From IMG/VR virus record IMGVR_UViG_3300022555_003200: DNA of 64,000 nucleotides; one strand, written 5' to 3'. Shown in pieces: positions 9,301-33,413 of this stretch (position 1 is the stretch's first letter; every line of letters begins with the position of its first letter). Below the pieces are notes generated by a model that saw only the letters and a program-made list of their open reading frames with translations, was not told the origin of the DNA and searched no databases. The translations under genes and the position numbers were made by a program. This DNA comes from a virus. Lineage: Duplodnaviria; Heunggongvirae; Uroviricota; Caudoviricetes.

Positions 9301-9309
9301 GAGAACACA

Positions 9310-11258: not shown

Positions 11259-11366
11259 GCGCACAAAACTGTGGCATGAGGCTTACGTTAACAAAGCTAA
11301 GCGAATCGTAAAGTTCTGCAACAAATGCGGCGAGTACTGGACTCTCGATGATATATGCTCTAACCC

Positions 11367-11669: not shown

Positions 11670-11679
11670 TGGAGGTATT

Positions 11680-11805
11680 ATGGCAGAGCCGTTGAAGAGA
11701 ACAAGCAAGAAGTGGTGTTCATGCGGGTACCGCAACCGTAAGGGTGCCAAGGGGTACCACGAAGACGGAAACCACCACAAGGGTTCCGGCGGAAAGAAGG
11801 CATAA
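11680..11805 (+). CDS. Micro-protein with a KKWCSCGYR motif.
   Basis: MAEPLKRTSKKWCSCGYRNRKGAKGYHEDGNHHKGSGGKKA, preceded by a GGAGG ribosome-binding site. Confidence 0.35.
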   Translation: MAEPLKRTSKKWCSCGYRNRKGAKGYHEDGNHHKGSGGKKA

Positions 11806-12005
11806 TGAATTATAAACTAGGAGACAAAGTTAAGAAAGTCGGCGGAGACTACACATTTGAGGGCACGGTAGTGGCTGCTTTTAACAAGATCTCTGGAGTA
11901 GAGCGCTTTGTTGTTGAAGATGACCGTGGAGTTTTGCATGTCTACAGCGCCAAAGTACTTGCACGTTTAGAAGGAGCTAAGAGTGAAGATAACATTCAGA
12001 AGTGA
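11805..12005 (+). CDS. Hypothetical small protein.
   Basis: ORF of 66 aa. Confidence 0.35.
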   Translation: MNYKLGDKVKKVGGDYTFEGTVVAAFNKISGVERFVVEDDRGVLHVYSAKVLARLEGAKSEDNIQK

Positions 12006-12213
12006 GATAAGCGACCGTGGTCGGGCCACAGAGTTCATAATACACATTGATGAGCTTGTTCTTGGAGCGGCCTATGAACTCAGAGAGCTTGTTCCTAAGG
12101 AGTACGACAGTGATATTCAAGGACGCGTCATAGATTACATGTTCTATGAGGCAAAGCGTCGTGTTAAAGAAGTTATTCTAGCTGGTAGAAAGACTGCCGA
12201 GAGCATAAAATGA
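11983..12213 (+). CDS. Hypothetical small protein.
   Basis: ORF of 76 aa. Confidence 0.35.
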   Translation: MKITFRSEISDRGRATEFIIHIDELVLGAAYELRELVPKEYDSDIQGRVIDYMFYEAKRRVKEVILAGRKTAESIK

Positions 12214-12361
12214 ACGCTGATACAAGCAACAGCTGCCTGCCGTCAAAATCCGTATACACTCAGTATGTGACAATCCACTTCGACGTACGCGAGTATGAGC
12301 GTAAAAAGTCGTGCTGGGAGTGGAACCAGAGGTTCAAGTCTAGTCATGAGGACGATCAAAC

Positions 12362-12841
12362 ATGAGTTCAGCTAAGTTTAAAACAATGCGGCATATTGAA
12401 ACTGTACGAAACTACCTAAACACGTGTATTAGGGAGCTTCTAGAACGTCAGGAAACGCATGATCAAACTAAGCTTGAATCTCCGGAGTTTGAGATATTTG
12501 AGCTGTACACTAAGAAACTGCGTAAGTGTACCTATGGGTCAGACACCTATAAACAGTATCTCAAGGAGATGGATCCGGCGCTGCAGCACCATTATGCACA
12601 CGGCAGACATCATCCAGAGCACTTCCCAGGTGGTGTAAGTGACATGACCCTCATTGACGTGCTTGAAATGCTCTGTGACTGGAAGTCGAGCAGTATGCGC
12701 CACAACGACGGCAATATATTGAAGAGTATCGAGATCAACACCACGCGGTTCAACATGGAGCCGCAGCTCGTATCTATATTGAAGAACACTGCGAAGTGGC
12801 TTGATGATCTGCAGGTCCAGCATAAGGCACAGGAATCGTAA
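12362..12841 (+). CDS. Hypothetical protein with a His-rich motif (HHYAHGRHHPEHF).
   Basis: ORF of 159 aa. It may be a metal-binding or HD-like hydrolase, which cannot be confirmed from sequence alone. Confidence 0.35.
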   Translation: MSSAKFKTMRHIETVRNYLNTCIRELLERQETHDQTKLESPEFEIFELYTKKLRKCTYGSDTYKQYLKEMDPALQHHYAHGRHHPEHFPGGVSDMTLIDVLEMLCDWKSSSMRHNDGNILKSIEINTTRFNMEPQLVSILKNTAKWLDDLQVQHKAQES

Positions 12842-13158
12842 TGAAAAAGTACATCTGCTCAACTGAATACTTTCCTAACTGTCGCGTTCATGATGGTGGG
12901 TTCACAGGTAGCATACAATTCTTTGAAACTGCTGACGAGCTAAGGGACTGGGTGCTAAAGTGCATGAACGACTCGTCAATACAGGAAATTTACGACCCGG
13001 AGGGTGGCGAAGCCGGGCTAATAAAATACGAACTTGATGGCAGTCATCATCGGTGTACCGGCGTCAACCTCTACATTGAAAAAGACTTCTGGAAGGTGGC
13101 TGATGACGGTAGTGGAAACAAGCGGTGGGTAAAAGAAGAGCGGGAGGATCCTAAATGA
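12841..13158 (+). CDS. Hypothetical protein.
   Basis: ORF of 105 aa. Confidence 0.35.
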   Translation: MKKYICSTEYFPNCRVHDGGFTGSIQFFETADELRDWVLKCMNDSSIQEIYDPEGGEAGLIKYELDGSHHRCTGVNLYIEKDFWKVADDGSGNKRWVKEEREDPK

Positions 13159-13460
13159 GGTGCTCGTGTGATAGATGGAATACTAACATCAAACACATAG
13201 ACGACGCGTTCGTCATGTTGGCAACACATGGAGTCAGGTATGCGGGCGAACAGTTTGTGTATTGCCCGTGGTGCGGATGCGTTCTAAATACAAATGGAGA
13301 AATAGCGTGACAGTCCTACTTTGGTTCTGGGTTTGGGGTAGACTTAAAACAGAAACATGGCACGGCACACTTATGTGGCTGTTGAGTGGTGTATGGGCCG
13401 TCTACTTTGACGTTCGTATTACACAGTGCTTAGGGGCAATCGCCGGAGTTAGCAGATAGC

Positions 13461-13829
13461 ATGCACAGCCTCATGAAACAAGCACGTGCAGCCAGCAAAA
13501 ACGCGATTGCGCCGCACAGCGGAATACACGTTGGGTGTGCCATTCGCACTGTTTTTAAAAAAGTGTACACCGGATGGAACATCGAAGGCCCATGGATGAC
13601 GTCAATACACGCGGAAGTCGGAGCAATATCAAGGATGACTGGCCCGTTTTTAGACAGAATTGCTGAGATCGCTGTTTACGCAGAAGGAGTTAACTTTACT
13701 CCATGCGGAGCATGCCTAGACTGGATTACTCGCTTTAGCAACAGCAGCACATTGTTGTTCACACACAATGGAAAGAATGCGAGATCATTTGTTGTAAAAG
13801 AATTGTACCCAGAATATCCTAAAAGATAG
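13461..13829 (+). CDS. Cytidine/deoxycytidylate deaminase-family zinc enzyme.
   Basis: HAE and PCGACLDW motifs are spaced as in CDA-fold deaminases. Confidence 0.65.
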   Translation: MHSLMKQARAASKNAIAPHSGIHVGCAIRTVFKKVYTGWNIEGPWMTSIHAEVGAISRMTGPFLDRIAEIAVYAEGVNFTPCGACLDWITRFSNSSTLLFTHNGKNARSFVVKELYPEYPKR

Positions 13830-13832
13830 TTG

Positions 13833-13861
13833 TTGACTTTGAAATCAGTTTCTGCTAGATT
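13833..13861 (+). promoter_or_regulatory. Sigma-70-like promoter with layout TTGACT-17-TAGATT.
   Basis: Sequence lies upstream of 13985. Hexamers and spacing were read directly. Confidence 0.45.
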
Positions 13862-13984
13862 TGCTTTGCTTGGGAGGACAGCTTTTTATGCCTAGAATAT
13901 TAGTCTTGGCCGTTAGTAGGTGTAGAGGCGTCGCTGTCTCTTCCAAGCCACCGAAAGCGGCCATCTTTATTTTAGGGGAGTAAC

Positions 13985-14671
13985 ATGACAAACAAGGAAT
14001 TGATTCTCAGCATCACCGATAGGAACAAGGAGAAACGAATCAACAAGATCCTTGGGCTTATCACAAAAAATTATGAGATCCAGGTAGCAAAATCTACCGA
14101 CGTGTTCCCTACGTCTAATGACCTAATTAACATCGTCATTCCCGCGAAAGTACAAAAGAATAAACTCTCCATCTTTGCCCACCACGATGTCTTTCCTAAC
14201 TCGCTTGGGTACAACGACAACTCGACCGGTGTCGCTACACTCTTAAAGCTCCAAGACTCTGTGCCTGACAACGTTGAACTTGTGTTTACAGACGGAGAGG
14301 AGCGCGGCGGTCAGGGATGCCGGTACTACCTCGAACACTCATGCCGACCTAAGGAAGCCATCAACGTTGACGTTGTTGGCCTCGGTGAAAAGATCTTCTA
14401 TGAACAGTACGGAGCCGTTAGTACGTTTCCAATACCGGAGTCGTTTGAGCTCTTTAAGCACATTCCTTTTAGTGACAGCTATATTCTAAACAACTACAGA
14501 GTGCCTAACATACTGATCCTTACAGGAAAGCGTAAAGAGTCACTCATACACAACATCTTTGAAGCACAGCATTGCGGAAGAAATGACGGCAAGATTGATC
14601 TGATCTCTGAAACCATCATGGACCAGGTCTTTGACAACATTGTACACATGGTGGGAGGACGGTACAAATGA
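13985..14671 (+). CDS. M28-like zinc metallopeptidase.
   Basis: Motifs FAHHD, DNSTG, FTDGEERG, VDVVGLGE and a distal His match the M28 metal-ligand pattern. Confidence 0.45.
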   Translation: MTNKELILSITDRNKEKRINKILGLITKNYEIQVAKSTDVFPTSNDLINIVIPAKVQKNKLSIFAHHDVFPNSLGYNDNSTGVATLLKLQDSVPDNVELVFTDGEERGGQGCRYYLEHSCRPKEAINVDVVGLGEKIFYEQYGAVSTFPIPESFELFKHIPFSDSYILNNYRVPNILILTGKRKESLIHNIFEAQHCGRNDGKIDLISETIMDQVFDNIVHMVGGRYK

Positions 14672-14832
14672 ACACTACAACTAAAATTGCAAAATGGACC
14701 GGATTTGTACTAATATTTTCATGTCTTATGCTGAACATCTGGGCTCAAGACAGTAACCCGCACGCGGTCAGAGGATGGGGCTGCGCTACGGTAGCCTCTT
14801 TTTTACTGGCAATTGGCATATAGGAGTCATAC

Positions 14833-15072
14833 ATGAGAAAGAAGTGGGGCTACTACAAGGTTCTTCTGAAAGGAAAGGGATTCTGGGTCAAGCGGCTTGC
14901 ATTTCAGGACGGCAAATCCACATCAATCCAGACTCACAAGAATCGTGACGAGATCTGGGTAATATTTGTACCGCGTGGAACAAAGCACAGTGTTGGTGGT
15001 CACGGGGACGTGTACGAGCTTGCTTTAGGGGAACCAAAAGAGTCAGATATCAAACGTTTTTTGAAAATCTAG
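14833..15072 (+). CDS. Small hypothetical protein, possibly a cupin-like fragment.
   Basis: ORF of 79 aa. Confidence 0.3.
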   Translation: MRKKWGYYKVLLKGKGFWVKRLAFQDGKSTSIQTHKNRDEIWVIFVPRGTKHSVGGHGDVYELALGEPKESDIKRFLKI

Positions 15073-15310
15073 GCTTGTCACACCATAGAGCGTTGCTGGG
15101 TGGGATCCGGGACAACTTGACCACACCGGCCAATAGGCCGGACTAACAGTAACAACAACTAACTCGGTGGCAATTGATAAACCTGACGACCTCCATGGAG
15201 GTTATCGGGCTGAGGTGCTCGGTGGGGTCACCTGCTGAGACAGTGCGCACCACCTCTGGCTTAGTATTTTCAAACTTTTTTAACAACAACCAACAACAAG
15301 GGGGAACACA

Positions 15311-15445
15311 ATGTCAGAAGAAGCGAAAACACCAGCACCGGGAGCGTTCATTGCTTCCTTGAAGCGCAACAATAGCAAGATCCGTGAAGACCGGGCAATC
15401 GCCATTTCAGAGGACTGCTGTGCAGAAGATGCAACCTTGGAATAG
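15311..15445 (+). CDS. Hypothetical micro-protein.
   Basis: MSEEAKTPAPGAFIASLKRNNSKIREDRAIAISEDCCAEDATLE, preceded by GGGGGA. Confidence 0.25.
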   Translation: MSEEAKTPAPGAFIASLKRNNSKIREDRAIAISEDCCAEDATLE

Positions 15446-15539
15446 GGTATTTAGGAGACTCCGTGTTAGCTCTCCAAGAAGCAATGCGCTACCTTGAAAA
15501 CTACGAGAAATAAAAACATAACCAAATGGGGGAGGGAAC

Positions 15540-16301
15540 ATGATTAAGGGTCTTGGGTTTACACACGAAACATTCAAGTTTCCGGTTGGAGAAATGCACG
15601 TTAAGGTGCACAGTTACACCCCGAACGACGAAGTTGCGATTGAGTTCTACTTCGAGAGGACCGAGGAGCTGGTTGAGCTTATGCTCATTGCCAATGCCCT
15701 AAAGCATGCTGGTCTAACCCTTGAACGAATATTTATGCCGTATGTTCCTTTTGGAAGGCAGGATAGGGTCGCTGTATCAGGGGAGTGCTTCTCCTTGGAG
15801 GTATTCGCCGGCATTATCAACTCGCTGGGGGTTGTCGTGGAGATCGCTGACCCACACTCGGACGTTTCAACAGCCCTTATCCACAACTGCCTTGTAATAC
15901 ATCAGCATGAGATCTTTGAACCGATGCTTAGGGAGATAGAGCCGTTTAAGTTGATCTGCCCGGATGGCGGTGCCAGGAAGAAGATCAACAAGATCAGCGA
16001 CCTTCCTTCTATGACCAACCGGATCTTGGGTGTTGTTGAGTGTTCGAAGAAACGGGAGCCGCGGACAGGAGCCATCACCGGAACGGTTGTCTATGCCGAC
16101 TCATTGGAAGGGGACACCTGTGTAATTGTTGACGATATTTGCGACGGAGGCAAGACTTTCATTGAGATCGCCAAGGTCCTTCGTGAAAAGGGTGCCAAGA
16201 AGGTCATTCTCATGGTGTCACATGGCTTTTTCACCAAAGGAATGGAAGTCTTCGACGGCATTATCGACGAGATATACACACTGAAAGGTAAAGTGAAATG
16301 A
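15540..16301 (+). CDS. Ribose-phosphate pyrophosphokinase (Prs)-like phosphoribosyltransferase. It is a candidate ADPR-pyrophosphate synthetase (Adps) of a NARP1-type NAD+ reconstitution pathway.
   Basis: PRTase PRPP-binding loop VIVDDICDGGKT, with a Prs-like N-terminal half. At 253 aa it is shorter than canonical Prs. Confidence 0.75.
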   Translation: MIKGLGFTHETFKFPVGEMHVKVHSYTPNDEVAIEFYFERTEELVELMLIANALKHAGLTLERIFMPYVPFGRQDRVAVSGECFSLEVFAGIINSLGVVVEIADPHSDVSTALIHNCLVIHQHEIFEPMLREIEPFKLICPDGGARKKINKISDLPSMTNRILGVVECSKKREPRTGAITGTVVYADSLEGDTCVIVDDICDGGKTFIEIAKVLREKGAKKVILMVSHGFFTKGMEVFDGIIDEIYTLKGKVK

Positions 16302-16729
16302 GCGATAAGGAAAAAGACATGAACAGGCAACTTGGGGAGTTTAAGGCCCGTGTTGAAAGTTTGGATATCATCCTAACGCTGAAAGATCAGCTGATAGAAG
16401 AAATCGAGGAAGCTCTGGGCATAACGGGGCACTCGAAGGAAGTAACCGGCGAGAATGCCTTGGATGCGATAGCCGACCTCAAGCGTGAGAACGCAGAGTT
16501 GGAAGAAAGGCTGAAAGAAAATGATTGGCAGTTTGTTCAAGTCAAAAAATGTATTGAGCGCAAGGATAAGGAAATGGAAGAACTCCGCACTCGTAACGCT
16601 GAGTTGGAAAAGATTATGGAGGATGCTTCAAAAGGAGATTATGCGTTTGATTGTGCATTTGAAAAACTGGAGGCTGAAAACAAAGAACTCCAGAACCGCC
16701 TGTCCACTCTTGAGAAGGAGGGGAAATGA
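16298..16729 (+). CDS. Coiled-coil protein.
   Basis: Heptad-rich and E/K/L-rich ORF of 143 aa. Confidence 0.4.
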   Translation: MSDKEKDMNRQLGEFKARVESLDIILTLKDQLIEEIEEALGITGHSKEVTGENALDAIADLKRENAELEERLKENDWQFVQVKKCIERKDKEMEELRTRNAELEKIMEDASKGDYAFDCAFEKLEAENKELQNRLSTLEKEGK

Positions 16730-17151
16730 GCCAAGTCGTTGATCCATATTGCGATGTAAATAGGTGCATCGAACGCCTCCGTAACGAGTTCAAAAAGTAC
16801 GGTAACCTTGTTATCGGGTTCGACTTCGATGAAACGATCTTTGACTACCACCACCAGGGACACTGCTACACCGCTGTTATGGAGCTGCTCCGCCGATGCA
16901 GTAAACTTGGGCTCACAATGTGCTTGTATACTAACGAGTCTAATCCTGACAAGCTTAAGTTTAAGCAGGATTACTGTAGGTACTCGCTTGGGTTTATGCC
17001 AAGCTTCACCAATGAGAGTCCGCTGCTTAAAGACGGCGGAAAGCCATTTTTTAGCACCCTGCTTGACGACCGCGCCGGTCTCGGGCAGGCGTATATCGTA
17101 CTGGAGGCTGTAGTGAACGAAATTGAAAAGGAAAGGATACAAGAAAAATGA
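16726..17151 (+). CDS. Small HAD-superfamily phosphatase-like protein.
   Basis: Motif I FDFDETI (DxDxT), a LYTNES Thr/Ser motif, and a DD motif LLDDRAG. Confidence 0.5.
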   Translation: MSQVVDPYCDVNRCIERLRNEFKKYGNLVIGFDFDETIFDYHHQGHCYTAVMELLRRCSKLGLTMCLYTNESNPDKLKFKQDYCRYSLGFMPSFTNESPLLKDGGKPFFSTLLDDRAGLGQAYIVLEAVVNEIEKERIQEK

Positions 17152-18614
17152 TTTCACCCATTGTACTCAAGGATTTCTACAAAACAGACCATAGAAGGCA
17201 GTACCCGACAGGAACTGAGATCGTGTACTCCAATCTAACGCCTCGCGGGAGCCGTGTGCCTGGGGTCGACCACGTGGTCGTGTTTGGAATCCAGTATTTT
17301 GTCAAAGAGTACTTGATTAAGCGGTGGAATGAGGACTTTTTCAACCAACCAAAAGACGAGGTTGTTCGCAAGTACAAACGGCGCCTTGATAATGCTCTTG
17401 GAAAAGACTCTGTTCCCATTGAGCACGTTGGGGAGCTTCATGATCTTGGATACCTTCCTATTCTGCTCAAAGCTCTTCCAGAAGGAACTCTGTGTCCGAT
17501 GCGTATTCCGATCCTAACGATCCGGAACACCCACCCGAAGTTTTTTTGGCTAACAAACTTCATGGAAACAGTCATGTGTAATATCGTGTGGGGCCCAACC
17601 ACTTCAGCATCTACAGCCTACGCCTACAGAAAGATGCTGGATGGGTACGCGGCAAGGACATCTGACATTCCGGAGTTTGTCAACTGGCAGGGCCATGACT
17701 TCTCGATGCGAGGAATATTTGGGATTGAGGGAGCCCTAATGTCTGCTGCTGGCCATCTGCTTAGCTTTACGGGCACGGACACGGTCCCAGCGATCGACTT
17801 CCTTGAAGAATATTACGGCGCTGACTCTGACAAGGAGATGGTAGGTGGCAGTGTTCCGGCAACGGAGCACTCGGTCATGTGCCTCGGTGGTCTTCTGTCA
17901 GAAGAAGAGACGTTTCGCAGGCTCCTTACTGAGATCTATCCTACTGGCATTGTCTCTGTTGTGTCTGACACATGGGACTACTGGAATGTGATCACGAAGA
18001 CCCTTCCGGCTCTAAAAGATGTAATTATGAACCGGAACGGTCGGCTTGTGGTTCGCCCCGACAGTGGTGATCCTGTGAAGATCATCTGTGGCGACGCTGT
18101 GAGTGATGATCCAGCAGCCAAAGCCGGCACTGTTGAGCTTCTGTGGAACACCTTTGGCGGCTACACAAACGCTAAAGGGTTCAAGCAACTCGACAAGCAC
18201 ATTGGGGTAATCTATGGCGACAGCATCACACTTGAGCGGTGCGAAGCCATTTGTGAAGGTCTTGCACGAAAGGGGTTTGCGTCCACGAACATGGTGTTTG
18301 GCATCGGAAGCTACACTTACCAGTTTGTGACACGTGACACCTTCGGGTTTGCCATGAAAGCTACCTGGGGCATCATCAACGGAAAGCCTGTGACTATCTA
18401 CAAGGACCCGAAAACCGATAGCGGGATCAAGAAGTCCGCCCGCGGGCTCTTGCAGGTTAATCAAGATGCTACAACCGGAGAGCTCACGATGATTGAAGAT
18501 GTCACGCCAGAACAAGAGGATCTTGGGCTGCTTACAACCGTATTTGAAGATGGCAAAATCGTAACCGAGTACACACTTGCAGACATTCGCAAGCGTCTCG
18601 GGTGCATAAAGTAG
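17148..18614 (+). CDS. Nicotinamide phosphoribosyltransferase family (NAMPT/NadV-like). It is a candidate Namat.
   Basis: The 488-aa length and overall profile match the NAMPT family, including GTDTVPAIDF and the GIGSYTYQ region. Confidence 0.8.
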   Translation: MISPIVLKDFYKTDHRRQYPTGTEIVYSNLTPRGSRVPGVDHVVVFGIQYFVKEYLIKRWNEDFFNQPKDEVVRKYKRRLDNALGKDSVPIEHVGELHDLGYLPILLKALPEGTLCPMRIPILTIRNTHPKFFWLTNFMETVMCNIVWGPTTSASTAYAYRKMLDGYAARTSDIPEFVNWQGHDFSMRGIFGIEGALMSAAGHLLSFTGTDTVPAIDFLEEYYGADSDKEMVGGSVPATEHSVMCLGGLLSEEETFRRLLTEIYPTGIVSVVSDTWDYWNVITKTLPALKDVIMNRNGRLVVRPDSGDPVKIICGDAVSDDPAAKAGTVELLWNTFGGYTNAKGFKQLDKHIGVIYGDSITLERCEAICEGLARKGFASTNMVFGIGSYTYQFVTRDTFGFAMKATWGIINGKPVTIYKDPKTDSGIKKSARGLLQVNQDATTGELTMIEDVTPEQEDLGLLTTVFEDGKIVTEYTLADIRKRLGCIK

Positions 18615-19171
18615 GGGGCGTTATGATCGAATACAGCTCTGACGAAGCAGCAAAAAAAGTAACTGTGACCGGATGGATGTCTAAAGACGGTCACTTTTGG
18701 GGAGACAATGAGCACATGGCCCGCTGGTCCGGATGCACTCACTTGAAGTGCGAGTGTGGAGCAACCATGGAAAAGGGGTGGACAAAGTGCGAGTCCTGCA
18801 GAGAGAAATCAAAGCAAGAGAAGTTTGAGAAGTTTAAGGTCATTCAGTGGGACTACAAGACGCCAATCTCCATCTATGACACGGACACCTACTTCTTTGA
18901 CGAGCAGGACCTGCTTGATTACTGCGACGATGAAGGGTTGGAGCCAGAGGAACTGCAGCTAGTGCTCTGCAAACAGAACCGACGCCGTGTCCTTAACGTG
19001 TATGAGTTCCTTGAAGACGATGTTCACGAAGACTGGGACCCATCTGCTGATCTCGAAGCTGCCGTTATCGCCTTCAATGAAGCCGTGGCCAAGGACCCTT
19101 ACCAGACATGGTTTGCCACGGACACTCGCGTTACGTTAGCACCAAAAGAGAAAGAAGCGGAGAATACATAG
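18602..19171 (+). CDS. Hypothetical protein with a zinc-ribbon (CECGATMEKGWTKCESC).
   Basis: ORF of 189 aa. Confidence 0.4.
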   Translation: MHKVGGVMIEYSSDEAAKKVTVTGWMSKDGHFWGDNEHMARWSGCTHLKCECGATMEKGWTKCESCREKSKQEKFEKFKVIQWDYKTPISIYDTDTYFFDEQDLLDYCDDEGLEPEELQLVLCKQNRRRVLNVYEFLEDDVHEDWDPSADLEAAVIAFNEAVAKDPYQTWFATDTRVTLAPKEKEAENT

Positions 19172-19431
19172 TGAGACCCGTATTCAGGGCGGCGTCGTTT
19201 GAGGAAGTAGCTAGGAGGCCAAAACCCCCTGAAACTACTTTCGAGTTTGCCGTTGCTGAGTTACGGCGAAGGATGGTAGAAGTCTTGGGAATATCCGCCG
19301 AGTATTTTGGAGTGGATTGTGCCGTAACAAATGGCGAACGCAATATAAATGTGTTTGTAAAGCCGGTTTGTCCAGCAGAGTTTATTACAATAACGTGCCA
19401 AGTGGCACCAACAACAAACAAGGGGGAATAA
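19169..19431 (+). CDS. Hypothetical protein with the N-terminal motif PVFRAASFEEVARRPKPPE, from a GTG start.
   Basis: A GGAG ribosome-binding site precedes the GTG. The N-terminus is shared with the 52080 protein. Confidence 0.4.
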
Positions 19432-19432
19432 A

Positions 19433-20017
19433 ATGAAGGGGTTTTTAATTGGAATGGCAGTGGTTTTAGGGGTGCTTGCTTTTATAGCACTCTGCGTGTT
19501 CGGGTTTATCACAGGGAACTACAACTCACTCGTCCAGCAGCGTATTGAGTGCGTTACGCAGTGGGGCCAGGTCGAGACACAGTACCAGCGCCGGTTCGAT
19601 CTTATTCCGAACCTCGTGAATGCTGCTCGTGGGTATATGGAGCATGAGCAGGTCGTGTTTAAGGCAATAGCAGATGCTCGTAAGAATTACGCCGGATCTA
19701 AGGGTGACGACAAGGTTAAGGCCCAGGGTGAGTTGGACGGTGCTATCTCAAGACTGTTAGTGATTATGGAGAATTATCCAAACTTAAAAGCCAATGAGAC
19801 CGTTCAGGGGCTGATGTATGAGCTTGCAGGCACTGAGAACCGCATCAATGTTGCCCGTCAGCGGTACAACGAGTCCGTACAGATCTACGACACGTCCATT
19901 CAGTCATTCCCGGGCAACATCTTCGCCGGCTTCTTCCACTTTGAAGCCAAGACGATGTACACCAGTCAGAAGGGTGCCGAACTGCCCCCCCAAGTTAATT
20001 TGGAGGTGGCTAAATGA
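19433..20017 (+). CDS. lemA: LemA-family membrane protein.
   Basis: N-terminal TM helix, then NYNSLVQQRIECVTQWGQVETQYQRRFDLIPNLV..., a typical LemA profile. Confidence 0.75.
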   Translation: MKGFLIGMAVVLGVLAFIALCVFGFITGNYNSLVQQRIECVTQWGQVETQYQRRFDLIPNLVNAARGYMEHEQVVFKAIADARKNYAGSKGDDKVKAQGELDGAISRLLVIMENYPNLKANETVQGLMYELAGTENRINVARQRYNESVQIYDTSIQSFPGNIFAGFFHFEAKTMYTSQKGAELPPQVNLEVAK

Positions 20018-20514
20018 GCCGGCGAGTTTGGTTAGTACCGATGATGTGTGTTTGGGCTCTCATAGCCTGTGGCTGCGATGTCTCTACTACAGCTGTGGAG
20101 AAAGTGCCCACTATCCCGGAAGCTACCGGCTATGTTGTTGACCAACTTGGCTTGTTAGACTCTTCGGCTGTGGATCAGATCACAACATTTTGCAAGTCTG
20201 TTGAACCACAACTTCAGGTTGCCGTACTGATCGTGAACTCCACACAGCCGTGGTCGATTGAGCAGTTCGGCATCAAGGTAGCAGAGAAGTGGAAGGTTGG
20301 GTTTAAGGGCAAGGATAATGGCGTTATTGTTATCCTGGCTAAGAGTGACCGGAAGATCCGCATCGAAGCCGGCCGCGGAGCCGAAGCGTTCTTGCCTGAC
20401 GCTAAAGCAGGCAACATCATCCACGATATCATTGCGCCTCATTTTAAGCGGGGCGACTGGAAGGGTGGTATGGTAGCGGGACTTCAAGCAATCAACAAGG
20501 AGGTGAGACAATGA
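20014..20514 (+). CDS. TPM-domain (TLP18.3/Psb32/MOLO-1-like) protein with an N-terminal signal/lipoprotein-like segment.
   Basis: Segment LVPMMCVWALIACGCD, then GYVVDQLGLLD...KDNGVIVILAKSDRKIRIEAGRG. It occupies the conserved position after LemA. Confidence 0.6.
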   Translation: MSRRVWLVPMMCVWALIACGCDVSTTAVEKVPTIPEATGYVVDQLGLLDSSAVDQITTFCKSVEPQLQVAVLIVNSTQPWSIEQFGIKVAEKWKVGFKGKDNGVIVILAKSDRKIRIEAGRGAEAFLPDAKAGNIIHDIIAPHFKRGDWKGGMVAGLQAINKEVRQ

Positions 20515-20882
20515 AAGAAGTCGGAGACGTAATTGTGTTGGCAGGCAAGTCTGTGACCATTGAATCCTGCACAGGGTGTGGTGCAGAAATGGTAAACGTA
20601 CAGTACATTCCGGTAACCTCAGTCGAGCTGGACACATTGCGAGAGCTAGAGCTGCGTATGTGCAGCACCGATGACAAAAGAGTATGCCAGGAGTGTGGAG
20701 AAGAGCTCGCGTCCAGTCGCAAAAGAAAAGAAGAAGAGGATGAAGAGGAAGACCGTCAAAGAAGAGACGATGACTCCTCAGGTCCTAGCTTTGGCGGAAG
20801 CGGCGACGACGATTCCGGAAGTGGCTTTGGTGGATTTGGCGGAGGTGATTTTAGTGGCGGAGGCGCTACGGGCGATTTCTAA
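20511..20882 (+). CDS. Zn-ribbon protein with an acidic linker and a Gly-rich tail.
   Basis: CTGCGAE...CQECGEE, then an E/D-rich stretch, then SGFGGFGGGDFSGGGATGDF. Confidence 0.45.
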   Translation: MKEVGDVIVLAGKSVTIESCTGCGAEMVNVQYIPVTSVELDTLRELELRMCSTDDKRVCQECGEELASSRKRKEEEDEEEDRQRRDDDSSGPSFGGSGDDDSGSGFGGFGGGDFSGGGATGDF

Positions 20883-21106
20883 TGACAAAAGGCGACGCTG
20901 ATCAAATCTCGATATTGTTTCACACCCATCCTGTAATAGCGTGGGTAATCGCCATCGCCGTGGTCATTGTTGTCTTGTATGTCATTGCAAACTCTGACGA
21001 TGATGGCATATTTGGTGGTGGCTGTGATGACGGAGACGGCGGTGGTGGGTTTGGAGGTTTTGGTGGTGGTAGTTTCGGAGGCGGTGGTGCATCAGGAGGA
21101 TTTTAA
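20882..21106 (+). CDS. Small TM protein with a Gly-rich tail (GGFGGFGGGSFGGGGASGGF).
   Basis: A TM helix and Gly-repeat that parallel the C-terminal segment usually fused to TPM proteins. Confidence 0.45.
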   Translation: MTKGDADQISILFHTHPVIAWVIAIAVVIVVLYVIANSDDDGIFGGGCDDGDGGGGFGGFGGGSFGGGGASGGF

Positions 21107-21120
21107 CAGGGGGGTGAAGC

Positions 21121-21360
21121 ATGGTAGGCGCGATGTTTGTTTTACTTCTTGCAATCTTCGGGTATTTTGGATTTCAAGAAGGCATGAAAAAGTGGGAACA
21201 GTTTCTTAACGACCGTAGGGAAATACTGAAGAGCCTGGAAGCTGAGGCGCTTAAAGGAGCGGCAAGTAAAACACAAGCTCCGATGAGCAACATACAGTTT
21301 ACGGCTTTACTTGAAACAAACTGGCTGACATGGGCCAAATCAAAAGGGATCATCAGATAA
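21121..21360 (+). CDS. Small membrane protein.
   Basis: Hydrophobic N-terminus. Confidence 0.35.
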   Translation: MVGAMFVLLLAIFGYFGFQEGMKKWEQFLNDRREILKSLEAEALKGAASKTQAPMSNIQFTALLETNWLTWAKSKGIIR

Positions 21361-21364
21361 GGAG

Positions 21365-21580
21365 GTGGTAGAAGTGTTTAGATTCATCGAGCTGTTCGGA
21401 ATGTTGATACTGCTGTGGTTTGTAGCGAATTTTGTCCATTATATTGTGTGGACAGCATCTGGATATGAAGGTCCGTCCAATATCCTGTTTGGAATGTCAA
21501 GTGGGTGGATAAAAAATGCAAAAGAAATGCAAGAAGAGTCGAAGCAAAGCACCAAACCAGCAACGAAAAAGGGGAATTAA
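21365..21580 (+). CDS. Small membrane protein.
   Basis: Two hydrophobic segments. Confidence 0.35.
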   Translation: MVEVFRFIELFGMLILLWFVANFVHYIVWTASGYEGPSNILFGMSSGWIKNAKEMQEESKQSTKPATKKGN

Positions 21581-21581
21581 A

Positions 21582-22622
21582 ATGGAAAAAAGTAAACAAG
21601 TATTTGGAATAGGGGGAGCCGTCGTAGCATTTATCGTACTGTTTGTGGCATTGCTCACATTCGGCTATGTAAATGTCCATCCTACAGAAGTTGCTGTTGA
21701 AGTGAACAAGTTCGCCGGTAAGGTTGTGCCAGAGCCCAGGGGGGTTGGGTACCACTTGTTTAATCATTGGCAGACGGATATGGTGATCTACCAGATATCC
21801 GCACGGTCATTCCCACATGACTCCATGAAGTCGGACCAGCACTCTAATGAGTGGAATATGTCACTCAAGACCATTGACGGTCAGGGTATTGACGTTGACA
21901 TGACGATCATTTACTCGCTCAATGCCAAAGACGTGCCGGCGCTTCACGCGTCAGTAGGTCCTGGGTACGAGGATCAGATTCTGCTTCCGCAGGTCCGGTC
22001 AGAGGCTCGTATTGCGATCGGGCAATACACGGCTGAGCAGATGTACGATGGTAAGATCCGTGAACAAATCCAACAGTCCATTAAAACAAAACTTCAAGAC
22101 GCTCTCAGCAAATATCCTGCCATTAACATTCAGGATGCCTTAATGAGGGATTTCCGGTGGCAGAATGCCCAGTTCCAACAGGCTATTGAGTCCAAGAAGC
22201 TGGCCTCACAGCAAGTTGAGGTCAACAAGAACTTGGCTGCTGCTGCGGAACAGAACGCCTTGAAACTTAAAGCGGAAGCCGAGGGGGAGAAGTTCCAAGC
22301 GATCCAACAAGCACAGGGTCGTGGGGAGTCTCTTAAAGCGGAAGCCGAGGGCAATGCCGCAGCTATTAAGCTGAAAGCAGATGCCGATAGGTACCGTCTT
22401 GAAGCTGAAGCTGCTGGTAACCTTGCTCGGTACAAGGCTGAAGCAGAAGGCAAGAAACTGTCTGCCGAGGCTCTTGGTGGTGGTCAGAATGTCGTGAACC
22501 TTGCGTTTGCGGAGAAGCTGTCTCCGACGTTGCAGATTTGGGGTATTCCGGTCGGTAATAACAACACCTCTCTTATGGACGTGTCCGGGGTGTTCGGAAA
22601 GATGTTAAGCAAGAAGGAGTAG
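21582..22622 (+). CDS. SPFH/band-7 (HflK/C-, flotillin-like) membrane protein.
   Basis: N-terminal TM helix, an SPFH core, and a C-terminal Ala/Glu-rich coiled coil containing KAEAEG repeats. Confidence 0.8.
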   Translation: MEKSKQVFGIGGAVVAFIVLFVALLTFGYVNVHPTEVAVEVNKFAGKVVPEPRGVGYHLFNHWQTDMVIYQISARSFPHDSMKSDQHSNEWNMSLKTIDGQGIDVDMTIIYSLNAKDVPALHASVGPGYEDQILLPQVRSEARIAIGQYTAEQMYDGKIREQIQQSIKTKLQDALSKYPAINIQDALMRDFRWQNAQFQQAIESKKLASQQVEVNKNLAAAAEQNALKLKAEAEGEKFQAIQQAQGRGESLKAEAEGNAAAIKLKADADRYRLEAEAAGNLARYKAEAEGKKLSAEALGGGQNVVNLAFAEKLSPTLQIWGIPVGNNNTSLMDVSGVFGKMLSKKE

Positions 22623-22781
22623 CAAGAAATGGCTGCTTGGGGGATTCAAGAGGAAACTAGCCGGGGAGAAGTCCTCGTTAACAGCACCTCCACTGGCGTG
22701 TTGCTAGTACTGTTCGCCAGTCCCCGAGCAGCCTATTTACTCGCACAGCATAACCAACAACTAACATAAGGAAAAAGAACC

Positions 22782-23069
22782 ATGGTAAAGCACACGAAGA
22801 ACCACCCACTCGGTCTAACGGCTAAGCAAATCGCGGACCTAGCGGGAATAAGTGTCTCTGAAATCAACTTGGCGGAGAGCTCCGCTGTGTACCCACACAG
22901 AGCAAACGGGACGCGATATGTGATCGCCCACAAGCATCACTTTCGCGACAAAGTTATCGACAAGATCGACTTAGACATCAAAAAAGCTAAGGAGATCCTC
23001 AGGCACCTTAAAAAGGAAAAAGCTCAGCGGCAGCAGGCTCGTCAAGAAGCGATTACACCAAAAGCATAA
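22782..23069 (+). CDS. Small HTH DNA-binding protein.
   Basis: LTAKQIADLAGISVSEIN helix-turn-helix. Confidence 0.45.
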   Translation: MVKHTKNHPLGLTAKQIADLAGISVSEINLAESSAVYPHRANGTRYVIAHKHHFRDKVIDKIDLDIKKAKEILRHLKKEKAQRQQARQEAITPKA

Positions 23070-23814
23070 ATAACAAAAGTTGCGTAGGAGGCAAAGGTGG
23101 GTTGTGTCAGCATCAGGGCGTGCCAGAGTAATACGTTGGGTGTTGCGGCTTGGCGTATGAGGGTAGGCACAGGAGTCGGAAATGGTCAGCGGTGATCGCA
23201 AACTAGCCCGCGAGAGTATCCGTAGCCCCAATACCCGGTTAGCACGAATAAAACCCCCGGGAAACTGAACCCTCATGTGGTGCTGTGGGTAACAATTTGA
23301 CAAAGAGTATTCCGGGACGCCGGCGGGTTGAAGCTCGAGGTTACAGGCGCTATTCGCTCATACAGGAATTTAAAGCGAAAAACCTACGTCGAGATACTCT
23401 TTAATTTGCGTAGTCGAATAGCGGGAAACCGTGCTATTAGGGGATAAACTCCCTAAAGTGATTGGGCTGTAGGCTTAGAAGTAGCCATCAGCTAAGAAAC
23501 GTCGCCCGGCCGTTACTCTCAGAGGGGCTAAGTAAAAACGTACCAATCTATACGGCTACAAACTAATGTTGGTGGTGTTTTTAAACTATGCTTGGGGAAA
23601 GACCGCAACCAGTGAACCAAGACCACCAATCGTTTGGAGCTGTGGCGTGTTACACGCACAGATAGTGGGGCGAGAGGCCGGTTGTTCAGAATTGACCGGC
23701 AGTGGGATGGCCAAAAACCCCGCCTCAGATGAGGAGAAATACCACTTGAGTGGACGGACATGGTGGAAGAACCCGCCGCCCCGTTCGCCGGCTCCAACTA
23801 AATAGGAGAAGTAA
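23070..23814. other. ORF-free region of 745 nt. It is a candidate large structured noncoding RNA or a cis-acting element.
   Basis: There is no credible coding frame, only short non-protein-like ORFs. It lies within a genome that is otherwise more than 90% coding. Confidence 0.4.
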
Positions 23815-24078
23815 ATGACCCCCCGAAAAACGTGTGTGCATTGCCAAGAGTACCCCTCTTGCAGAAATACCTCGGAAGAACCCTACTACGGAATACTGTC
23901 CTGCGGATGTACCACATGTGACTGCCACGCCCCTTCCACTGAGTTCACCTGCACCGAATGCGGAAAAAAGTTTACCATATGGAAACTTCTTTTCAAGCAC
24001 CTAGACGAACACCGTAAACAACACGAAGAAGACATGTACAACAAGTCGGAGGACCCACGGTACACGTGGGGCATTTAA
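23815..24078 (+). CDS. Small protein with a canonical C2H2 zinc finger.
   Basis: CTECGKKFTIWKLLFKHLDEH fits CX2CX12HX3H, with additional N-terminal Cys. Confidence 0.45.
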   Translation: MTPRKTCVHCQEYPSCRNTSEEPYYGILSCGCTTCDCHAPSTEFTCTECGKKFTIWKLLFKHLDEHRKQHEEDMYNKSEDPRYTWGI

Positions 24079-24079
24079 C

Positions 24080-24376
24080 ATGGGCCAATGGGGTGATGAT
24101 TGGGAAGATGATAACTTTGAGGACTGGGGAGAATACAGCGGCGGGGACGCATATAGCAAAGTAACGTTTATGTCACTTGAGTTTCATTGTTTAAAGCACA
24201 CAACAAAGAAGGCCTGGCTTGTGAGCTTCTACAGCGCTAAGCCAATGAAAACAGTAACGGTATGGCTTCCAAAGAGCCAATGCATCCTAAGTCCTGAAAC
24301 ATTTATTGTAAAAGTTCCGGCGTGGCTGGCGGATCAGAACAACCTAACAAAGTATGTAAAAAAGCAACCACTATGA
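24080..24376 (+). CDS. Hypothetical acidic protein.
   Basis: ORF of 98 aa. Confidence 0.35.
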   Translation: MGQWGDDWEDDNFEDWGEYSGGDAYSKVTFMSLEFHCLKHTTKKAWLVSFYSAKPMKTVTVWLPKSQCILSPETFIVKVPAWLADQNNLTKYVKKQPL

Positions 24377-24555
24377 GTAATACTCAGCCAAAGATAATGC
24401 TGCAGAAGTGCCTGATCTGTAACTACACATGCGCGTACGAGGTACTGTCCAAAGAAGACGAGGATACTATCCGTGCAAGCTGCCTTTCCTGTGGGCATCA
24501 GGGAATGTTTACACTACTAGAGGAGGACCACGATGGGCTATCTCGGGATAGATAA
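24322..24555 (+). CDS. Small zinc-ribbon protein.
   Basis: CLICNYTC...CLSCGHQ. Confidence 0.3.
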   Translation: MAGGSEQPNKVCKKATTMSNTQPKIMLQKCLICNYTCAYEVLSKEDEDTIRASCLSCGHQGMFTLLEEDHDGLSRDR

Positions 24556-25480
24556 TCTTTACAAGAACCAGGAAATTCTTATGTTCAAGCGCTGCTACGC
24601 TATGGAGAAGATCCACGGAACATCAGCACATATTAGCCTTGACCGGTCCAGGCAGCTTGTGTTTGGACCTATCATTGGTGTTAACGAGGACGCGAGGCGG
24701 TACACTGAGGCTGAATGGCAAGAACGCTGGCCTGACAAGATTGAACTGCATTTTTTCTCCGGCGGTGAAAAGCACGAAAACTTTATAAAACTGTTTAACC
24801 ACCAAGACCTAGAAAACAAGTTTCGAGCCATGAACATCAAGGAGCTCATTGTTTTTGGGGAAGCTTATGGTGGCAAGCAGCAGGGCATGTCTGGCACATA
24901 CGGCAAAGAGCTTAAGTTTATAGCCTTCGACGTCAAGCTTGGTGGAAACTGGCTTGCTGTGCCTAACGCGGAGTCTGTGTGTGCTCAGCTCGGCATTGAG
25001 TTTGTTCATTATGAAGAGGTTGCCACAGATCTTGATGTTTTAAATGCACTTTCCGAGGCAGACTCTGTCCAGGCTGTGCGGAATGGTGTTGGGCCCGGGC
25101 ATATCCGTGAAGGTGTGGTTTTACGGACTCTTGTTGAGCTCCGGAAGAACAATGGTGAGCGGATAATAGCCAAGCACAAGAATGAGAAGTTCCAGGAGAC
25201 TGCCAAGAAAAGAGAGGTGTCTAAAGAGCGCCTTGAAGTACTCACAGAGGCACAGGCTATCGCGGACGAGTGGGTCACGCGTCAACGCCTCATGCATGTG
25301 CTTGATAGGTTTCCGGATGCTACTATTACAGAAACAGGGGCTATTATAAAAGCAATGGTTGAGGACGTGCTTAAAGAGAGTGTCGGAGAAATTGTTTTTA
25401 GTAAAGAAGCCCAAACTGCTATTGGAAAAAAGACCGCACTTATATTCAAAGAGTACATAAAACAAAGCCTGTATGAATAG
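24533..25480 (+). CDS. ATP-dependent RNA ligase of the Rnl2 family.
   Basis: Nucleotidyltransferase motif I EKIHGTS (compare T4 Rnl2 EKIHGTN). Motifs III/IV VFGEAYGG...KFIAFDV are co-linear with T4 Rnl2. Confidence 0.75.
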   Translation: MGYLGIDNLYKNQEILMFKRCYAMEKIHGTSAHISLDRSRQLVFGPIIGVNEDARRYTEAEWQERWPDKIELHFFSGGEKHENFIKLFNHQDLENKFRAMNIKELIVFGEAYGGKQQGMSGTYGKELKFIAFDVKLGGNWLAVPNAESVCAQLGIEFVHYEEVATDLDVLNALSEADSVQAVRNGVGPGHIREGVVLRTLVELRKNNGERIIAKHKNEKFQETAKKREVSKERLEVLTEAQAIADEWVTRQRLMHVLDRFPDATITETGAIIKAMVEDVLKESVGEIVFSKEAQTAIGKKTALIFKEYIKQSLYE

Positions 25481-25502
25481 CAAAAAAATGTTAAAATTTG
25501 TA

Positions 25503-25531
25503 TTGACAAAGTTGCAAAAACGTGGTATAAT
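25503..25531 (+). promoter_or_regulatory. Consensus sigma-70 promoter TTGACA-17-TATAAT.
   Basis: Exact hexamers with exact 17-nt spacing, followed by AGGAGG and the ATG at 25560. Confidence 0.7.
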
Positions 25532-25559
25532 ACTCTATAACTTAAAATAGGAGGATTCT

Positions 25560-26111
25560 ATGAGTACTATACCATGCAAAGTGCCAAACTGTGAGAAAGA
25601 AGCTGCAAGCAAAAGAAGTGGCCTATGTAACGCGCATTATTTTAGATTGCGTCGCCATGGATCCTATGAGCTACCAATGACCCGGCGAGAAAAACTCATT
25701 AAAGAAGGAAAGTCATATTGTCCAAAGTGTCATGAGACAAAACCTCTAGATGAGTTTGGTAAAGACATACACACGGCTTTCGGAGTGGCGTGCTACTGTA
25801 AAGGCTGCTCTAACAAGAAGGGAAAAGACAGGTACAAAAATAACAAGAGAAAACACCAAGACTACCATCGAAAAAAAGAATTTGGCGTTACTTCAGAGTG
25901 GTACGACACAATGTTTACAAACCAAGACGGAAAGTGTGCTATCTGTAGCAAACTTCAGACTCCTGGAAGGCAGCTGTCGGTGGATCATTGCCATATGTCA
26001 AGCCAGGTACGCGGGCTCCTATGTGACAAATGCAATTTCATACTCGGTCAATGTGGTGACAACATTGAGATCCTCGAGTCTGCTATACAGTATCTCAAAT
26101 GCTACCGGTAG
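25560..26111 (+). mobile_element. Endonuclease VII-family (HNH-like) endonuclease. It is a probable free-standing homing endonuclease.
   Basis: LSVDHCH...RGLLCDKCN motif plus N-terminal Cys pairs. It has its own strong promoter. Confidence 0.7.
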
Positions 26112-26164
26112 TCATTGGTAAAAGGACTGCTCAGATGTTTCACCAGCGTCTGAAAAGCTCATTA

Positions 26165-26204
26165 AAAATATCATAATTTTTTCTTGAAACAGCCGTAATA
26201 TATA
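26165..26204 (+). promoter_or_regulatory. Copy C of the conserved promoter-like motif.
   Basis: AAAATATCATAATTTTTTCTTGAAACAGCCGTAATATAT. Confidence 0.6.
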
Positions 26205-26239: not shown

Positions 26240-27199
26240 ATGGCGAGACCAATCAAAGAAGGACTAGACTATTTTCCTATGGACTGCGACATCGACCAAA
26301 AACTCGAGGAGCTAGAAGCAGAGTACGGGCTTGAAGGGTTTGGGCTGTATGTGCGGATACTACAGTGGGCATACAAGGACAGATCTGGTGAGGTTGTTAT
26401 AAACGATCAGCATAACCCTAAATGGGCCTTGTGGGTACGCCGGACTGGTATTGAAGAGGATAAACTAAAAAGGATGGTCGAATACATGCTGCACATTGGC
26501 CTGTTTTCACAGAGTAGGTATGACTCGGATGGCACCCTTACTTCTGGTGGCATACAAAAGCGGATTGGTGAGGTAAACAAGAAGAGAGACAGTAACAGAG
26601 CTATTTACGGCGGCAGAAACAATACAGAAACTAGAGTTTCAGCGGGGTTTCAGACACCCGAAACCCTCCAGAAACTAGAAAATGTGGTTTCAGCGGGGTT
26701 TCAGACACCCGAAACCCTCCAGAAACTAGGGTTTCAGCAGGGTTTCAGCGGGGTTTCAGACGTCCGAAACCCTGCTGAAACGCCACAAAGTAAAGTAAAG
26801 GAAAGGAAAGAAAAGGAAAAGAAAGTAAATTGTTCGCCTGACGGCGAGTACACACCTGTTGAGTCTCCTGACAAGCCACCTAAAGAACGCAAACTTGGGC
26901 CTTCTCAAGAGGTACTCGAGCTAATGCAGTACTTCTACAAGTCGTACGAGCACAAGTTTAACCAGAAGTACTTTGCACAGAACTTCAACAACGACAGTAG
27001 GATCTTTAAAGACCTACTAGCAGGTGGGCTTGGTCCGACCAAGATACCTGTGCTCATTGATGCATTCTTTGAAGAAGACGAGGACGAGTTTGTTAAGAAC
27101 AGCACATACACTACAGGGTTATTCAAGTCAGTGATTCATAAATACTTATCTAAAATCAATCCAAACCGCTCGGGCAACCGGGTACTGAAGGTAAAATGA
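26240..27199 (+). CDS. Phage replisome organizer / replication initiator, DnaD-like with a DUF4373-type N-terminus.
   Basis: N-terminal MARPIKEGLDYFPMD...YGLEGFGLYVRIL. The mid-gene carries tandem repeats. The gene sits directly upstream of the helicase. Confidence 0.55.
   Translation: MARPIKEGLDYFPMDCDIDQKLEELEAEYGLEGFGLYVRILQWAYKDRSGEVVINDQHNPKWALWVRRTGIEEDKLKRMVEYMLHIGLFSQSRYDSDGTLTSGGIQKRIGEVNKKRDSNRAIYGGRNNTETRVSAGFQTPETLQKLENVVSAGFQTPETLQKLGFQQGFSGVSDVRNPAETPQSKVKERKEKEKKVNCSPDGEYTPVESPDKPPKERKLGPSQEVLELMQYFYKSYEHKFNQKYFAQNFNNDSRIFKDLLAGGLGPTKIPVLIDAFFEEDEDEFVKNSTYTTGLFKSVIHKYLSKINPNRSGNRVLKVK
26636..26782 (+). repeat. Iteron-like tandem repeats (GGTTTCAG / CTGAAAC elements) inside the initiator gene. 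They are a candidate replication origin.
   Basis: Two near-perfect repeats of about 48 bp, plus degenerate GGTTTCAGC copies and an inverted CCTGCTGAAAC. They encode VSAGFQTPETLQKL twice. Confidence 0.5.
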
Positions 27200-29565: not shown

Positions 29566-30000
29566 ATGCGAGAGTACAATAGACAGCGCCGCAAATTGCC
29601 GGAGGTAAAAGAGCGCGAAAGACAGTATCAGAGGACTGATAGAGTCAAAGAGTTGAGGAGAAAATACTATAGTTCTCCGGAGTGTAAGGAACTTAGGCGT
29701 CAATACCGTAAGTCGCTTAAAGGAGCCGAATCAAAACGAAGAGAAGCTCTTAAGTATAACTATGGTATAGGTTTAGAAGAGTATGATAGGCTGTTTGATA
29801 AACAGCGTGGTAGATGTGCTATATGTTTTGAAACATGCCCAGGAAAAAAACGGCTTAGCGTTGATCACAACCATACTACTGGAGCTATCAGGGGCTTACT
29901 ATGCGCTCGGTGCAACTTTATGCTAGGGTACAGCGGCGACTCTATTTTAGTTTTACACGAAGCGGTACGTTACTTGGAGGCATCTAATGAAAAAGAATAA
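29566..30000 (+). mobile_element. Second Endonuclease VII-family HNH endonuclease.
   Basis: LSVDHNHTTGAIRGLLCARCN motif. Confidence 0.7.
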
Positions 30001-33324: not shown

Positions 33325-33360
33325 TTATTGCTAGTTTATTATACGTGTAAAATAGTTCAA

Positions 33361-33398
33361 AAAATATCATAATTTTTTCCGAAAACAGCCGTAATATA
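33361..33398 (+). promoter_or_regulatory. Copy D of the conserved promoter-like motif.
   Basis: AAAATATCATAATTTTTTCCGAAAACAGCCGTAATATA. Confidence 0.6.
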
Positions 33399-33413
33399 GA
33401 GTGAGGTGATGAT

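Follow-up and report, generated by a model that had tools for sequence, protein, structure and literature searches.

The question raised by positions 23070 to 23814 of this phage genome is what a 745-nt interval without a protein-like reading frame contains. The interval lies in a stretch of 64,000 nt of DNA from a tailed phage (Caudoviricetes), here called the window, between an HTH-like gene (95 aa, 22782-23069) and a C2H2 gene (87 aa, starting at 23815). A preliminary description, made from the letters of the DNA, suggested a large ornate RNA of the GOLLD, ROOL or HEARO kind or a self-splicing intron, with a pac/cos site or an origin as the alternative. The analysis given here divides the block (23070-23814) into two parts, a 5' conserved structured RNA and an unconserved, non-coding 3' tail. 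At its 5' end the block very probably encodes a non-coding RNA, compactly folded and about 205-230 nt long, which belongs to no described family and would be either embedded in a transcript or processed from one.

Coding signal and folding energy of the block

The open reading frames inside the block are short and mutually overlapping only. A codon-usage log-likelihood, trained on the 19 longest ORFs of the window, gives all block ORFs of at least 30 aa a score between -21 and +5 bits, compared with +25.7 bits for the HTH gene and a mean of +0.35 bits per codon for the long genes. Neither the block ORFs nor the six-frame translations, those of the 3' part included, have a match in Pfam or PHROGs. 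Comparison of the largest plus-strand ORF (79 aa) with 1.84 billion representative proteins revealed no conserved small protein, its two matches being repeat-type and to long proteins. Each frame contains mixed stop types, and recoding of a stop codon is unlikely because no single type is missing from any frame. The phage is present in many ENA and Logan assemblies as copies that are 100% identical, so that there is no microdiversity to exploit, and gene callers make no call over the block in any of its public contigs. The codon scores, the family searches, the gene callers and the homologue search thus confirm the ORF-free block of 745 nt at these coordinates. The surrounding genome had been described as more than 90% coding; a crude estimate of the coding fraction gives 87%.

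Taken together with the C2H2 gene, whose codons are atypical, the block forms the longest part of the window that lacks gene-like codon usage. The C2H2 gene (23815-24078, 87 aa) encodes the pattern F-x-C-x2-C-x3-F-x5-L-x2-H-x3-H and scores 23.8 bits in Pfam, slightly below the cut-off. It has a negative codon-usage score, and gene callers pass over it in several of the public contigs. For a phage, a C2H2 finger of eukaryote type is unusual. At the edge of the window, positions 1-1850 hold few ORFs and have no gene-like codon usage at 187-640 and 1023-1849; they are possibly a further non-coding region.

The many local hairpins reported previously are no more than would be expected by chance. 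Measured against dinucleotide shuffles, the MFE z-score is -1.0 for the whole block, -1.7 for its 3' part and between -2.0 and +1.4 for windows of 120 nt that begin inside it, which places the block and its local windows within about 1-2 SD of the reference. The single-sequence folding energy of the RNA described below is equally unremarkable (z of +1.35 and -0.91). Thermodynamic stability, as evidence of structure, is not significant for any stretch folded, be it the block, its parts or the 120-nt windows.

Conservation in a related phage

An RNA ligase gene situated 0.7 kb downstream of the block has thousands of relatives and was used as the anchor for finding the nearest relative of the locus. 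The closest RNA ligase, 69% identical in amino acid sequence, is on a 216-kb contig, the fetched part of which is called L043. The two distantly related giant phages presumably originate from lake and peat metagenomes. Contigs of the second phage bear the study label WOOD18, presumably the Stordalen Mire series, and those of the window phage bear BUCK21, presumably a series from a stratified lake. At the DNA level only two items of the region are similar to L043, namely the RNA ligase gene (70% nucleotide and 69% amino acid identity) and positions 23073-23298 of the window, which match L043 3282-3497 with an E-value of 1e-28. The match falls into an uncalled gap of L043, save for a 49-aa ORF that overlaps its 5' end only. 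Matches found by tblastx over the element are in several frames and on both strands, and the conservation is therefore at the nucleotide rather than the protein level. On either side of the RNA the two phages have unrelated genes, and the position of the element relative to the shared genes is reshuffled.

Conservation in relatives without a codon signal, which had been proposed as a check on the RNA reading, is thus found for the 5' part of the block, but the 3' 512 nt are absent from L043 or unconserved there. Between the stop codon of the upstream gene and the RNA homologue, L043 has a perfect 9-bp inverted repeat, ACCATATTG-N10-CAATATGGT (L043 3247-3274), which could be an operator or a hairpin and has no counterpart in the window.

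A blastn search of the 50,697 phage records of INPHARED with the 1.5-kb region and the 207-nt RNA (E<=10) gave chance matches of 22-26 nt only. Exact and gapped motif scans built from the invariant stretches found no copy in IMG/VR and none in JGI metagenomes; in GTDB genomes they gave one chance match, which is inside a coding region and misfits the model. The covariance model R1 and nhmmer profiles detected no further copy in about 1.3 Mb of loci around relatives of the RNA ligase and of a 189/205-aa protein, and the concatenated six-frame translation of the RNA had no match in the protein database. The HTH neighbour is an ORFan and provides no anchor, the Band_7 neighbour has one relative in IMG/VR, which is not syntenic, and the L043 neighbours of the RNA, when used as anchors, have no relatives in IMG/VR. 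Within the window, no part of the block recurs as a second copy or paralogue. A full-text literature search, using the invariant strings and covering surveys of structured RNAs in phages, found no description of the RNA. The RNA is rare, with two representatives across the collections searched.

Another phage of the same lake samples, whose RNA ligase is 57% identical, has an uncalled stretch of 688 nt (L048/L049 2687-3375). This stretch has no similarity to the block and no Rfam match.

Structure of the RNA

The two sequences were aligned with MAFFT from sequence only (alignment A4, 208 columns), and the structure was derived with RNAalifold. The core of the RNA is 202 nt long (23098-23299, plus strand), has its homologue at L043 3305-3501 and is predicted to fold into 55 base pairs. 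Model R1 scores the two RNAs at 243 and 226 bits. The closing helices P1 (23098-23105 with 23292-23299) and P2 (23108-23115 with 23278-23285) enclose a multi-branch junction bearing P3, P4, P5 and a small P6.

The P3 arm (23120-23170) consists of three stacked helices (23120-23124 with 23166-23170, 23131-23135 with 23154-23158, and 23138-23141 with 23148-23151) and ends in the invariant loop GUUGCG (23142-23147). The P4 arm (23172-23228) has large invariant internal loops, one of which, AGUA (23215-23218) opposite GAA (23179-23181), resembles a loop E motif. Its inner helix (23189-23192 with 23208-23211) contains one compensated pair and carries an invariant terminal loop of 15 nt, UGAUCGCAAACUAGC (23193-23207). 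The following stretch is formed by the junction AAUA, P5 and the 3' strand (23229-23277). The stem of the P5 hairpin (23234-23238 with 23257-23261) is invariant, whereas its loop differs in sequence and has 18 nt in one phage and 9 nt in the other, and the small P6 is situated within the invariant strand GGGAAACUGAACCCUCAUG on the 3' side of P5. All these elements are on the plus strand, as is P0 (23080-23094), a hairpin of the form UUGC-N7-GCAA that is seen just 5' of the core in alignments A1 and A2. The P0 stem is identical in both phages while its loop differs at five of the seven positions. P0 may form the 5' end of the RNA or belong to its start signal.

Some of the invariant segments are complementary to each other. 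The L3 segment UUGCGG (23143-23148) and the L4 segment UCGCAA (23196-23201) are a candidate tertiary pairing between two invariant loops. The pairings UACCC/GGGUA and AGUCGG/CCGGUU, also invariant (n=2), can be drawn as further putative tertiary contacts.

Compensatory changes

Of the 55 plus-strand pairs in alignment A4 (n=2 sequences), 14 have changed on both sides and yet remain paired, in five a change on one side has created or removed a G-U pair, and no pair is broken. Each of the 33 substitutions in paired columns is compatible with the fold. The alifold energy is -59.7, compared with -28.9 +/- 4.0 in 300 column shuffles, and the shuffles have 4 compensated pairs on average and 8 at most. 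When the 3' partners are moved by 1-3 columns, 0-2 compensated pairs are found and 31-49% of the cells are paired, as against 100% in the observed register. Helix 2 (P2) and helices 3 and 4 (in the P3 arm) have four compensated pairs each.

The P2 and P3 stretch (alignment columns 13-75) is only 43% identical between the phages, yet every pair is kept, with eight compensated pairs in the P3 arm. In the P4 arm, in contrast, identity is 85%, and it reaches 100% in J4/5 with the P5 stem and in the 3' junction strand; the P5 loop is variable, in its sequence as in its length. Judged from the alignment, this pattern of conservation is that of a functional RNA. The covariation support is strong for two independent sequences, but below R-scape-grade statistics, and the invariant helices P4, P5 and P6, as well as any tertiary pairs, are suggested by conservation alone.

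The fold is specific to one strand. RNAalifold finds 59 pairs and -62 kcal/mol on the plus strand versus 40 pairs and -41 kcal/mol on the minus strand, and the wobble pairs of P1 (three G-U and one U-G) together with all one-sided changes fit the plus strand only. The generic test for an evolutionarily conserved structured RNA thus yields, from two sequences, compensation that exceeds the controls and is strand-specific. These strand-specific compensatory changes indicate an RNA rather than a DNA site.

A DNA-level element, such as a replication origin, a pac/cos site, or a cluster of operators or promoters, would suit the position of the block in a replication module and would have room in the otherwise unexplained 3' tail. 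It is nevertheless highly improbable, since pairing is kept by compensation within a branched fold and the G-U pairs fit only one strand. The block, moreover, has no iterons or any other repeat family beyond chance, no AT-rich tract (the GC content is 0.46-0.54) and no change of skew, the cumulative skew being monotonic; the pac/cos or origin alternative of the preliminary description accordingly finds no support. A better candidate for an origin is a 51-nt tandem repeat at 26636-26781 (2.8 copies, 86% matches), which is followed by an (AAAGG)n run at 26787-26829. Both repeats are inside a Lin1244_N-like gene (26240-27199) just upstream of DnaB, and the region 26636-26829 has the appearance of a replication origin of iteron type within an initiator gene.

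The substitutions do not have the signature of a coding sequence. In the six frames 27-34 of them are non-synonymous versus 3-9 synonymous, and each frame has stops in at least one of the two sequences. A protein-coding gene was rejected on finding no conserved frame, synonymous bias or family match. In the window phage a strong SD sequence and a GTG precede a 32-aa ORF (23097-23195), as might be expected of an unannotated or decayed gene. However, this ORF is without a start codon in L043, its codons change radically where the stems vary, and there are stops in all frames and no family or six-frame matches, and the conserved protein with an unusual start, which the preliminary description had named as a refutation of its own reading, is not seen in L043. 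A self-splicing intron, for which a homing-type Endonuclease_7 gene 1.7 kb downstream might speak, fares no better: the flanking genes are complete, unsplit and different in the two phages, no group I or group II model of Rfam matches, and there is no RT/maturase gene. A hidden protein gene or an intron is hardly credible as an explanation of the block.

Relation to described RNA families

Rfam 15 has no match in the block, either at the gathering score, which was applied to the window, or at E<=10, which was applied to 22600-24100, to 23070-23320 (251 nt, lax filters) and to L043 3000-4000. The matches outside the block are an unrelated tRNA and two chance matches. ARAGORN finds nothing at the locus and only an unrelated tRNA-Met at 28915. 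Both programs agree with the earlier inspection by eye, in which no group I or II, tmRNA or RNase P motifs were recognised, and the Rfam comparison proposed at that time (GOLLD, ROOL, OLE, HEARO, introns, tmRNA and RNase P) assigns the block to none of these families.

GOLLD, ROOL, OLE and raiA were rejected on the covariance models, which do not match even at E<=10. HEARO or IscB omega RNA, TnpB reRNA and IS110 bridge RNA were rejected because no gene of the corresponding kind adjoins the RNA at either locus and Rfam has no match. The same applies to tRNA, tmRNA and RNase P, for which neither ARAGORN nor Rfam gives a match at the locus; a GUCGG/CCGGU pairing reminiscent of RNase P P4 can be drawn, and the remaining core is absent.

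The 3' part of the block

The 512 nt at the 3' end of the block (23303-23814) have no ORF with a coding signal and no folding signal beyond chance. They have no similarity to L043, to the other fetched loci or to the rest of the window, and contain neither a second copy of the RNA model nor the promoter-like intergenic box described below. In L043 the RNA is separated from the next gene by 234 nt, which are uncalled. Directly 3' of P1 a helix can be drawn in both phages. In the window it has 10 bp, AAAGAGUAUU/GAUACUCUUU (23302-23311 with 23393-23402, plus strand), and encloses 81 nt, and in L043 it has 6 bp, CGUAUC/GAUACG, and encloses about 40 nt. Read from the sequences in this way, positions 23302-23402 would form a tentative and weak extra domain; MAFFT and RNAalifold, when applied to the tails, do not recover the helix and find nothing shared. 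The non-coding tail beyond it (23403-23814) has no homologue in the searches and extends to the ribosome-binding site of the C2H2 gene. All in all, the ~510 nt on the 3' side of the RNA are non-coding and specific to the lineage, and would be a variable 3' tail or mere spacer.

It is quite unlikely that the whole block of ~745 nt is a single ornate RNA of the GOLLD or ROOL kind of which only the 5' domain can be aligned. Such an RNA would account for a block that is continuously ORF-free, for the ~234 uncalled nt after the core in L043 and for a helix 3' of P1 in both phages, and it would suit the setting, a lake-metagenome phage that has genes for RNA repair and tRNAs close by. However, GOLLD and ROOL are conserved over ~580-800 nt, whereas here conservation stops at about 23302, beyond which the two tails are unrelated and differ more than two-fold in length (512 and 234 nt). 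The tail has a folding z of only -1.7 with unremarkable local windows, the alignment of the tails gives no common structure, and the GOLLD, ROOL and OLE models remain unmatched at E<=10. The initial reading as a large ornate RNA thus holds in that a structured RNA is present, but this RNA occupies only the first ~205-230 nt and matches none of GOLLD, ROOL, HEARO and OLE.

Genomic context and transcription

The window represents the replication and nucleotide-metabolism module of a ~200-kb phage. It has genes for PolA-UDG, DnaB, primase, a UvsW-like helicase, RecA, SbcCD and class II RNR, and also for a GroEL-like chaperonin, NAMPT and RNA ligase. The polymerase (38153-40540) is a family A DNA polymerase fused to an N-terminal domain of the uracil-DNA-glycosylase superfamily. 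Two genes of Endonuclease_7/HNH type (25560-26111 and 29566-30000) have a GC content of 0.37-0.42 and atypical codons, are related to one gene of L043, and are probably mobile homing endonucleases.

The neighbourhoods of the RNA ligase gene in related phages are tRNA islands, the kind of setting in which stable RNAs of phages occur. More than 20 tRNA genes form a dense array around the ligase gene in one related contig (L124 500-11200), and tRNAs adjoin the ligase gene in L053, L055 and L125 too. L055, a phage contig with a relative of the RNA ligase, also carries a TnpB/Cas12f-like gene (OrfB_IS605) at 370-1578.

The RNA has the same orientation as all its neighbours (plus strand). An intergenic box of ~45 nt, AAAAATATCATAATTTTTTC[CT][GT]NAAACAGCCGTAATATAG, occurs in the window in five near-identical copies, where 0.1 would be expected by chance. 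The copies, at 7449-7488 (minus strand) and at 8945-8984, 26164-26203, 33360-33399 and 40550-40589 (plus strand), are oriented with the downstream genes, and the box probably serves as a promoter or regulatory site specific to this phage. L043 lacks it, and there is no copy near the RNA. Two of the boxes bracket a putative unit of 17 kb, from about 8985 to 26163, with the RNA inside. Simple scans for sigma-70 promoters and terminators gave nothing convincing for the RNA. Since none of its neighbouring genes is conserved and neither a promoter nor a terminator can be recognised for it alone, the RNA would be part of a long transcript.

The fold might instead act in cis, as a riboswitch-like leader or as an intra-operon element of the EAR or put type that alters elongation or RNA processing. 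It is co-oriented with its neighbours and lies within the putative 17-kb unit without a promoter-like box of its own, and its core is as conserved as a riboswitch aptamer. A cis-acting element is nevertheless unlikely, as the downstream genes are wholly different in the two phages, 512 or 234 nt separate the RNA from the next start codon, no terminator-like site or SD-sequestering hairpin follows P1, and no riboswitch, EAR or put model matches. The same observations speak against a riboswitch or other cis leader.

Proposed role of the RNA

The RNA would be made within a long transcript of the early or replication module and would act as a stable processed RNA or as a folded module in the transcript, rather than as the leader of one downstream gene. 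In the proposed structure, the stacked closing helices P1 and P2 would hold the multi-branch junction, and the P3 arm would serve as a scaffold, the sequence of which is free to vary as long as pairing is kept. The P4 arm, the P5 stem and the joining strands, being near-invariant, presumably make up the functional face of the RNA. A protein or a small molecule could dock there or fit into a pre-organised pocket, perhaps with the loop-loop contact of L3 with L4 as a brace. Given its invariant core and the lack of any conserved target gene, the RNA is more likely to bind a partner, either in trans or as part of a transcript.

A more specific proposal is made tentatively and is on the doubtful side. 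The two sequences may be the founding pair of a compact class of jumbo-phage RNAs, in which the core formed by P4, P5 and the junction provides a site of catalysis, a pocket for a ligand or an interface for self-assembly. Self-assembly might, for example, involve contacts of the complementary invariant loops L3 and L4, by analogy with the cages of ROOL and GOLLD or the rings of phi29 pRNA. If the core had such a function, this would be a new functional RNA and not just another conserved cluster of hairpins.

Many of the large or intricate RNAs with mysterious functions, GOLLD and ROOL among them, come from phage genomes, and each new class with conservation of riboswitch or ribozyme grade may point to new RNA biochemistry or to an interaction of phage and host that is new. 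The design of the present RNA is clear, with covarying scaffold arms around an invariant core, and it is found in the early or replication module of uncultivated ~200-kb phages from freshwater and peat. Its status is that of a well-supported candidate from two sequences rather than a characterised system. The analysis establishes its conservation, strand, secondary structure, lack of coding and place outside the known families, and leads by inference to its expression, ends, tertiary contacts and function. The size of ~200 nt suits direct probing, ligand screening and structure determination.

Comparison with known systems

GOLLD and ROOL, which are large ornate RNAs of phages or prophages, form cages that have been seen by cryoEM (PMC12286853). 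The present RNA resembles them as an intricate orphan RNA carried by phages, co-oriented with its neighbours, in a setting of RNA genes and tRNAs, and from lake samples. It differs from them in being 3-4 times smaller (~205-230 nt versus ~580-800 nt), in having no match to their models and in having two representatives.

The stable RNAs C and D of phage T4 (species 1 and 2 RNAs of the tRNA cluster) have a length of ~120-140 nt and an unclear role. These, too, are small phage RNAs, and are derived from a polycistronic early transcript near tRNA and RNA-repair genes. They are, however, shorter, a relation in sequence is not expected, and processing of the present RNA is putative.

EAR and the put RNA of HK022 are cis-acting RNAs that cause antitermination within operons. 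Like the present RNA they are folded elements inside a long operon on the same strand, with no gene of their own to control. They are ~65-120 nt long and have different folds, whereas here no covariance model matches and no terminators to be overridden were identified.

The aptamers of the lysine and cobalamin riboswitches are similar in architecture only. In contrast to those aptamers, the present RNA has no covariance-model match, no conserved downstream gene and no expression platform. What they have in common is a length of ~180-210 nt, a multi-helix junction closed by P1 and a possible loop-loop contact. They also share a loop E-like motif, here AGUA/GAA, and near-invariant junction strands beside peripheral stems that covary freely. 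This resemblance, an analogy of architecture, may serve as a lead.
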